From a bacterium (GTDB taxonomy: Bacteria > Patescibacteriota > Minisyncoccia > Phycocordibacterales > Phycocordibacteraceae), in assembly GCA_037200965.1 (NCBI GenBank), contig JBBCGK010000001.1:352001-416000 (forward strand): 64,000 nt of DNA, given 5' to 3'. How positions within the stretch are numbered: position 1 is the first letter of the stretch; each line of letters begins with the position of its first letter. The notes beneath the pieces are model-generated. The model was not told the origin of the DNA, searched no databases, and saw only the letters and a program-made list of their open reading frames with translations. The position numbers were made by a program, and so were the translations under genes. This document shows, in pieces, positions 58,281 through 59,246 of this stretch.

Positions 58281-58311
58281 GCCTTAAGGTCGCACTGCAT
58301 ATCGAACACTC
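58281..58311. repeat. IS left terminal inverted repeat
   Basis: See mobile_element. Confidence 0.7.
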
Positions 58312-58329
58312 CCTAATACTAAGGAGGAT

Positions 58330-59232
58330 ATGCGCAAAGAACCCAGGGAAATCATCAGGAAATTGAAGAAGTCGGGAGGAAAGGTGCGCGAAACCGCACG
58401 GACACTCGGCATATCTCCGGGCACGGTGGTGTTCTGGAAGAAGCGAGCCCGGAGCATCCGGAGCCGGTTTGCGCTCTCGACGCGGCAGCTTGTCCGCAAG
58501 TCGACAAGACCGAAGCGTCTTCGCCGCAGGACGCTCTCGGGAGAGCGGGCTGAGGCGCTCTTGCGCCTGCGCGAAGAGAAAGGATACGGGGCGCGCAAGC
58601 TCAAAGTGCTGCTCGGCCTCTCCGAGCACCCGGCGACCATCCATCGCTTCCTCAAAGCGAAAGGTCATATACTGGAAGGCGCGTCATACCGACGGCCGAG
58701 ATATCAGGAGACCACGCATATGTATCTCAAGAACGTGACCGCGCCCGGGAAGCTTCAGATGGATGTGAAGTACGTGACGCCCGAGCTGTCGGGGCTCCCG
58801 CATACCCTGTATCTGTATGCCGTCATTGATATTTGGAGCCGATACAAAGCTGGCGTCATCTTCCCCGAGCTCGTGCAGGACTTCTCCATCGAGGCCCTGC
58901 GGACGGTTTCGCTGCCGTTCGTACCGGATTTCGTGCAGACCGACAACGGCCTTGAGTTCCAGAGCCGCTTCCGCGCCTTCGTGACTGGGGAACTCGGCTG
59001 GAAGCATCATTTCATCCACAAGGCGAACCCGAATGAGAACGCGGTCATCGAGCGGTCATTCCGCACCGACGAGGAGGAGTTCTTCTGGCGCTTCATGAAA
59101 AAGCCCGCTTCAATGGAGGACCTCAATGCCCAGTATCAGGCCTTTCTGCGCGAATACAACCACGAACGGCCGCACCTTGGCATCGAGCTCAAGACGCCGT
59201 ATGCTCGACTGCAAGAGTGTTCGATATGTTAG
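58330..59232 (+). CDS. IS481-family DDE transposase (HTH + rve integrase core)
   Basis: N-terminal HTH (KVRETARTLGISPGTV). Catalytic core with QTDNGLEF and C-terminal YNHERPHLGIELKTP, typical of the rve domain. GGAGG upstream. Confidence 0.8.
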   Translation: MRKEPREIIRKLKKSGGKVRETARTLGISPGTVVFWKKRARSIRSRFALSTRQLVRKSTRPKRLRRRTLSGERAEALLRLREEKGYGARKLKVLLGLSEHPATIHRFLKAKGHILEGASYRRPRYQETTHMYLKNVTAPGKLQMDVKYVTPELSGLPHTLYLYAVIDIWSRYKAGVIFPELVQDFSIEALRTVSLPFVPDFVQTDNGLEFQSRFRAFVTGELGWKHHFIHKANPNENAVIERSFRTDEEEFFWRFMKKPASMEDLNAQYQAFLREYNHERPHLGIELKTPYARLQECSIC

Positions 59233-59246
59233 TGCGATATTAAGGC
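59215..59246. repeat. IS right terminal inverted repeat
   Basis: See mobile_element. Confidence 0.7.

Follow-up and report, generated by a model that had tools for sequence, protein, structure and literature searches.

A 962-bp insertion sequence, probably of a divergent IS481-related clade, in the spacer between two genes of a polysaccharide cluster

Members of the IS481 family of insertion sequences (IS), such as IS481 of Bordetella pertussis, measure about 1 kb and are bounded by inverted repeats that are imperfect and about 30 nt long. Their single open reading frame (ORF) encodes a helix-turn-helix (HTH) followed by a DD(35)E transposase of the rve type and stops inside the right inverted repeat (IRR). 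The IS3 family shares a related DDE core and an N-terminal HTH, but uses two overlapping ORFs, orfA and orfB, with a -1 frameshift. Target duplications are 2-15 bp long, mostly 6 bp, in the IS481 family and 3-5 bp in the IS3 family (Kojima and Bao, PMC10045372), and the inverted repeats of both families start with 5'-TGT (IS1202 preprint, bioRxiv 10.1101/2022.12.17.520857).

The locus described here was found in a 64-kb stretch of DNA that was analysed as a whole (the window). In ORF content, length, inverted repeats, position of the transposase stop codon and 6-bp target duplication it resembles the IS481 family, while the termini of its clade (5'-CTTA(A/C) or CGTAC instead of 5'-TGT) set it apart. 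We estimate a probability of about 0.9 that it is an autonomous 962-bp insertion sequence of a divergent clade related to IS481.

The complete element spans positions 58283 to 59244 on the forward strand (962 bp), as identity among its copies stops exactly at both ends. The left end starts with 5'-CTTAAGG and the right end with 5'-CTTAATA. The left inverted repeat (IRL) covers 29 nt (58283-58311, forward strand; CTTAAGGTCGCACTGCATATCGAACACTC) and the IRR 30 nt (59215-59244, reverse strand; reverse complement CTTAATATCGCACTAACATATCGAACACTC). A gapped end-to-end alignment of these refined ends gives 26 matches, three mismatches and one gap over 29/30 nt, a score equalled by none of 5000 random 30-mer pairs at equal spacing in the window. 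The inverted repeats are real, far above chance. A repeat search showed inverted arms at 58281-58296/59231-59246 (88%) and 58298-58311/59215-59228 (100%), with a 1-nt indel between them, and over the whole 64 kb the 14-nt core CATATCGAACACTC has exactly two occurrences, one per strand (up to two mismatches allowed; 0.4 expected). A preliminary description of the locus had proposed an element with imperfect inverted repeats and a single DDE transposase at 58281-59246. Repeats and transposase were borne out, but these limits are too wide by 2 bp on either side, since comparison of three identical copies assigns the outermost GC on each side to the flanking DNA. At the window copy these IS-proximal flank bases (GC...GC) happen to be complementary and lengthen the inverted repeat by 2 bp. 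A search of the 64-kb window found no further copies, degenerate copies or solo ends of the element. With a G+C content of 57.7% compared to 59.2% for the window, the element is not compositionally foreign.

The transposase gene (58330-59232, forward strand) encodes 300 aa with an N-terminal HTH and a DDE core. This one uninterrupted ORF takes up 903 of the 962 bp of the element, carries the motifs QTDNGLEF and HERPHLGIELKTP, both quoted in the preliminary description, and ends with a stop codon at 59230-59232, inside the IRR. A Shine-Dalgarno-like AAGGAGG, read from the sequence, is located 2 nt ahead of the ATG (58321-58327, forward strand), and AGGAGG likewise precedes the transposase ATG in a related element of 987 bp. 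The catalytic triad consists of D145, D205 and E241, with 35 residues from the second aspartate to the glutamate (DD(35)E), and is invariant when the transposase is aligned with six members of its clade and two transposases annotated as IS481. The homologs, which measure about 300 aa, show a coverage of 97-100%. A match to rve and IS481 profiles had been anticipated; the protein scores above the Pfam cutoffs for rve_3 (46 bits) and HTH_Tnp_1 (27 bits), but below the Pfam cutoff of rve and the NCBIfam cutoff of the IS481 model.

By homology, the single 300-aa protein would bind the 29/30-nt terminal inverted repeats via its N-terminal HTH, and its RNase-H-fold DD(35)E site would cut and join DNA by 3'-OH strand transfer. 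The target would be cut with a 6-bp stagger, and host repair of the resulting 6-nt gaps would normally leave a 6-bp direct duplication. A copy-type pathway is assumed for IS3 and IS481 relatives; such a copy-out/paste-in-like pathway may by homology also apply here, and the data fit copy or cut alike. The copy in the window would then have landed in the spacer of about 67 bp between the GT2 and the capD/fnlA-like gene, in opposite orientation and with neither ORF broken.

On one side of the element, an intact GT2 glycosyltransferase gene (59273-60079, reverse strand; PF00535) encodes a protein of 268 aa that is called identically in other assemblies. On the other side lies an intact gene for a CapD-family (Polysacc_synt_2; FnlA/PseB-like) sugar 4,6-dehydratase of 352 aa (57179-58237, reverse strand; PF02719, 299 bits), which scores 328 bits with FnlA and 278 bits with PseB of NCBIfam, both below cutoff. 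The GT4 glycosyltransferase gene that follows (56067-57182, reverse strand; PF00534, PF13692) has a 4-bp overlap with the capD-like stop and is the last of the cluster. Upstream, up to position 64000, the same strand carries GT4, methyltransferase and polysaccharide-deacetylase genes in succession, so the label 'polysaccharide cluster' is correct. As previously described, the element is intergenic and on the strand opposite to both neighbors. There are 45 bp between it and the capD-like start, which is downstream, and 28 bp between it and the GT2 stop, which is upstream. The spacer thus amounts to 73 bp now; with 6 bp duplicated on insertion, it would have measured 67 bp before. Both neighboring ORFs are unbroken and have full-length homologs.

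The 352-aa capD-like protein corresponds to the NCBI call P0121, and its homologs comprise 338-358 aa, mostly 350-353. Its reading frame is open into the left end of the IS (58238-58309, reverse strand), and in GCA_015689235.1 a capD-like protein of 373 aa is called from an ATG at 58300, inside the IRL. We regard this call as an artefact, a false N-terminal extension derived from the IS; some gene callers fuse the IS to the adjoining capD ORF. Exact-protein look-ups of the capD-like protein with four alternative starts and P0121 returned just this 373-aa call, in GCA_015689235.1 alone.

The preliminary description also considered the insertion likely polar on capD and GT4. In its strongest form, this reading holds that both genes have been silenced, as the first stage of gene loss from a reduced genome, which we doubt. 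The insertion does place 962 bp of antisense, probably untranslated DNA between capD-GT4 and the co-directional genes further upstream, and the 45 bp left upstream of capD hold no convincing promoter: a minus-strand TTGAAA-17-TACTTT agrees at 8/12 positions by eye and is too weak to call. A scan of the region found no minus-strand promoter-like sites, and manual inspection of the IS ends no convincing -35/-10 pair. The one promoter-like site of the forward strand (TTGGCA-17-TATGCT, 59177-59205), which points out through the IRR, is weak, with one found versus 0.9 expected by chance. Against silencing, a consensus scan of 57900-59700 detected no terminator-like sites on either strand (2.3 expected in shuffles), and neither capD nor GT4 carries a disabling mutation. 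Four assemblies encode the identical GT4 protein, and the capD ORF shows no difference in two Logan assemblies or, except for the called start, in GCA_015689235.1. In every assembly found and all populations sampled, the insertion is either seen or implied. Moreover, all three copies known in the genome (see below) are situated in spacers that spare ORFs, suggesting that only tolerated insertions persist. Polarity as such is supported by none of the tests and is neither predicted nor excluded by the sequence; strong polarity on capD-GT4 is judged unlikely in view of the apparent persistence of the insertion and the lack of a predicted terminator. This apparent persistence in all samples, the lack of change in the CapD and GT4 proteins and the ORF-sparing copies argue against a strongly deleterious effect, although they prove little if the insertion is very recent.

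The same transposase protein is encoded at two more sites on contig JBBCBH010010897.1 (960,259 bp; GCA_037975565.1), and we infer that the window locus is a third site on this 960-kb contig, as the capD-like protein of the window is likewise encoded on a contig of 960,259 bp and its GT2 and GT4 proteins on one in the class of 0.2-1 Mb. The proposed search for other copies in the genome was successful: the element in the window, the loci of the two further copies (L001 and L002, at 5954-6915 in both) and a Logan unitig of exactly element size (L003, 962 bp) show 0 differences over 962 bp. This copy number is a lower bound, with at least three identical copies in the genome. Since these occupy different sites on one contig, the element has been recently active, in agreement with the recent mobility claimed before. 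Each of the two sister copies is abutted by its own perfect 6-bp duplication, TACCTA/TACCTA in L001 and CTGATG/CTGATG in L002. In L001, an MBL-fold gene upstream has its TAG stop within the right TACCTA (6916-6921); this stop codon was struck by the insertion and preserved by the duplication.

The target duplication sought in the preliminary description is thus perfect at the sister copies, but extends to only four of six positions at the window copy. Here, the left flank CCGTGC (58277-58282; the same bases in L006 and L007, both Logan assemblies) and the right flank GCGTGA (59245-59250; identical in L004 and L005) have the core CGTG in common. Perfect 6-bp duplications were observed at every other copy examined, sisters as well as relatives, and the window copy alone is mismatched. 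Both window junctions are base-identical in independent short-read assemblies, so the mismatch is real and not a sequencing error. Shifted ends with which the duplication at this site would become perfect (the 4-bp CGTG plus one extra base per end) were rejected, as they conflict with the ends defined by the two sister copies. A simple recent insertion does not predict mismatched flanks. The mismatch may stem from substitutions in an old 'master' copy, from gaps that were wrongly repaired on integration or from two copies having recombined. Apart from this imperfect target duplication, its one oddity, the element is an ordinary, intact insertion sequence.

All assemblies that contain the identical GT2 or GT4 protein either break at an IS end (L004, L006, L007) or run into the IS (L005), and the same junctions are seen where the DNA is readable (SRR28211700, SRR10968228, GCA_015655515.1). 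For GCA_015689235.1, which was covered at the level of gene layout, this layout implies a transposase N-terminus beside capD and with it the same insertion. Contiguity from GT2 through the IS to capD across the repeat comes from one assembly; short-read assemblies break at the IS. L005 (GCA_015655515.1) differs from the window at two positions over 4.9 kb, both in the 173 bp of IS end (5403-5575), with 0 differences in the 4.7-kb flank. These two differences probably reflect a short-read assembler meeting a population of IS copies (copy variation or mixing).

An allele with the empty site would read ...GGTTTCAA-NNNNNN-AAGCGTCC... and have no other DNA between GT2 and capD. A flank-gap-flank pattern for such a site and then the left flank alone gave 0 matches in JGI metagenome contigs; as even the left flank alone is missing, the species is absent from the JGI collection. 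In the GTDB representative genomes, the nearest GT2 is 58% identical with a different synteny and is of no use as an empty site, and the nearest capD-like homolog in the protein collection after the self-match is 65% identical. The relatives lacking the insertion, with which a comparison had been suggested, did not turn up in these searches, and the insertion event is consequently inferred and not observed. The nearest GT2 relatives originate from one Patescibacteria and one Saccharibacteria metagenome-assembled genome (MAG), which, together with the 960-kb contig, fits a reduced genome of the candidate-phyla-radiation type.

Recombination between two direct copies, with deletion of the DNA between them, would leave one IS with flanks from two sites. 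We regard such an IS-mediated rearrangement as very unlikely for the window copy, even though several observations point in its direction. The flanks CCGTGC and GCGTGA are unequal, in contrast to the perfect duplications of all other copies examined; the junctions hold up in independent assemblies, and the three identical copies are substrates for recombination. Furthermore, the G+C content of the capD-like gene (about 0.52-0.53) is lower than that of GT4 (about 0.66) and GT2 (about 0.57-0.60), and in a distant Saccharibacteria relative (L009, 4977-6943) a GT2 homolog is directly followed by a GT4 homolog with a 4-bp overlap and no capD-like gene between them. However, this relative is too distant for an ortholog test (44% identity for GT2 and 37% for GT4). 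A match at four or more of six positions is improbable for unrelated hexamers (p = 0.038), the genes on both flanks are functionally coherent and belong to one cluster on one strand, and none of the known copies has the reciprocal flanks.

The relatives of the element form a clade. A protein search yielded 1454 proteins at E <= 1e-3, the best 120 of which are 57-76% identical, nearly all about 300 aa long and mostly on contigs of about 1 kb, as is typical for collapsed repeats. Among the matches listed, several bear the name Candidatus Saccharimonadales, and NCBI labels one 'IS481 family transposase'. The genes of about 300 aa in Saccharimonadales MAGs, annotated as 'integrase core domain-containing protein' or 'transposase InsO family', are 57-76% identical over the full length. 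Their elements are like the one described here in the core of the ends and in the 6-bp duplication wherever the flanks are readable. They deviate from it in size (987 to about 1010 bp) and over the 14-15 outermost nt of the inverted repeats. The 987-bp relative (61% identical protein), read at ten contigs, has the ends CGTACTGTGACA/CTTACTGTGACA with the inner core CATATTGAACAC, and its 6-bp duplications pair across contigs (GTATAC, TTTGGG, GAGTTG and AACCGA). Two further relatives have CTTACTC... ends with the duplication GTCTAC and CGTACTG... ends with GTATAC. The related elements L021, L027 and L028 likewise contain the IRL core CATATCGAACAC; the inverted-repeat core CATAT(C/T)GAACAC is common to the first two and reads CATATTGCACAC in L028. 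From these end sequences we conclude that the clade has termini of its own, 5'-C(T/G)TA.

All clade insertions with readable flanks are intergenic (L001, L002 and L015-L030). The related IS in L028 (1148-4683; 61% identical transposase, target duplication GTATAC) is located inside another polysaccharide locus, between a gene pair for a wzm-like ABC-2 permease and a PemK toxin and a gene for a wzt-like ATPase. An orientation bias of the transposase relative to its neighbors was considered and dropped, as the initial 9/10 antisense cases became 10/13 with three more loci (p = 0.09). It is doubtful that the clade with its 5'-CKTA ends merits a subgroup of its own and that, at the same time, the mismatched flanks go back to an IS-mediated deletion in a surface-glycan locus or to an atypical event of integration or repair.

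In the ranking of NCBIfam models, the IS481 model (NF033577) is first with 145.4 bits over its full length (model positions 4-283 of 284), followed by IS3 (95 bits), IS21 (41 bits) and IS630 (22 bits), all under their curated cutoffs; the threshold of NF033577 is 224 bits. Ten relatives across the clade score 123-155 bits with the IS481 model and 66-104 bits with the IS3 model in unchanged family order, so the sub-threshold IS481 score belongs to the lineage and not to this copy. IS481 is ahead of IS3 by about 40-57 bits in 11/11 clade members tested. A tblastn search against 72,556 plasmids gave no match above 34% identity; of the best 15 matches listed (29-34% identity), 13 fall on 'IS481 family transposase' genes and the other two on DNA without annotation. 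At this identity the transposase stands apart from the annotated IS481 transposases of plasmids, and the named members of its clade belong to Saccharimonadales/candidate-phyla-radiation genomes. The DDE triad in an rve-type core, the single ORF without programmed frameshift and the 6-bp duplication of the sister copies fit IS481. The ends do not start with TGT: the element has CTTA, and its relatives have CGTACTG/CTTACTG or CTTACTC. The 987-bp relative contains TGT 5 nt inside its end, at a position that is not conserved across the clade. The earlier assignment to the 'IS481 family' therefore holds as far as best-scoring full-length model and duplication length are concerned, but not for the score itself (145 versus 224 bits) or the CTTA ends. 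We conclude from the protein and end sequences that the element may best be termed IS481-like, its nearest family and architecture being those of IS481. Membership of the IS3 family, or of another rve-type family not related to IS481, is a very unlikely reading: the IS3 model does reach 95 bits, the N-terminal HTH_Tnp_1 is an IS3-type HTH above cutoff and the IS481 score is under its cutoff, but IS3 membership is rejected by the single uninterrupted ORF instead of a frameshifted pair, the 6-bp instead of 3-5-bp duplication (PMC10045372) and a score below both the 160 bits of NF033516 and the full-length IS481 score in all 11 clade members, the best annotated relatives moreover all being IS481. 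The element, at 962 bp, also falls short of the size range of IS3.

Nothing in the element is surprising to a specialist. For annotation, an IS type that is publicly labelled just 'integrase core domain-containing protein' now has exact ends, a duplication length and a copy number. The element illustrates that small genomes of the candidate-phyla-radiation type still hold active insertion sequences, the surviving copies of which are found in a few gene-sparing spacers. Surface-polysaccharide loci are often variable between strains, and surface chemistry could change if expression of such a locus were affected.

Elsewhere in the 64-kb window, an Rfam search found no family at gathering score and no tRNA, rRNA or riboswitch. 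Just past the polysaccharide cluster, a polymorphic-toxin-like giant of 2669 aa (47547-55556, reverse strand) carries SpvB, FG-GAP, RHS/YD-repeat and TEN_YD-shell domains according to Pfam. A 4837-aa ORF (12486-26999, reverse strand) with a SASA domain of the sialate-acetylesterase type, a Peptidase_S74 intramolecular chaperone domain and a C-terminal bacterial surface Ig-like domain probably encodes a giant surface protein. Between the RHS gene and the GT4 gene, two small adjacent ORFs (55520-56062, forward strand), the second of which (86 aa) has a weak, sub-threshold match to HigB/RelE-like toxins (20.6 bits), may represent a toxin-antitoxin pair.
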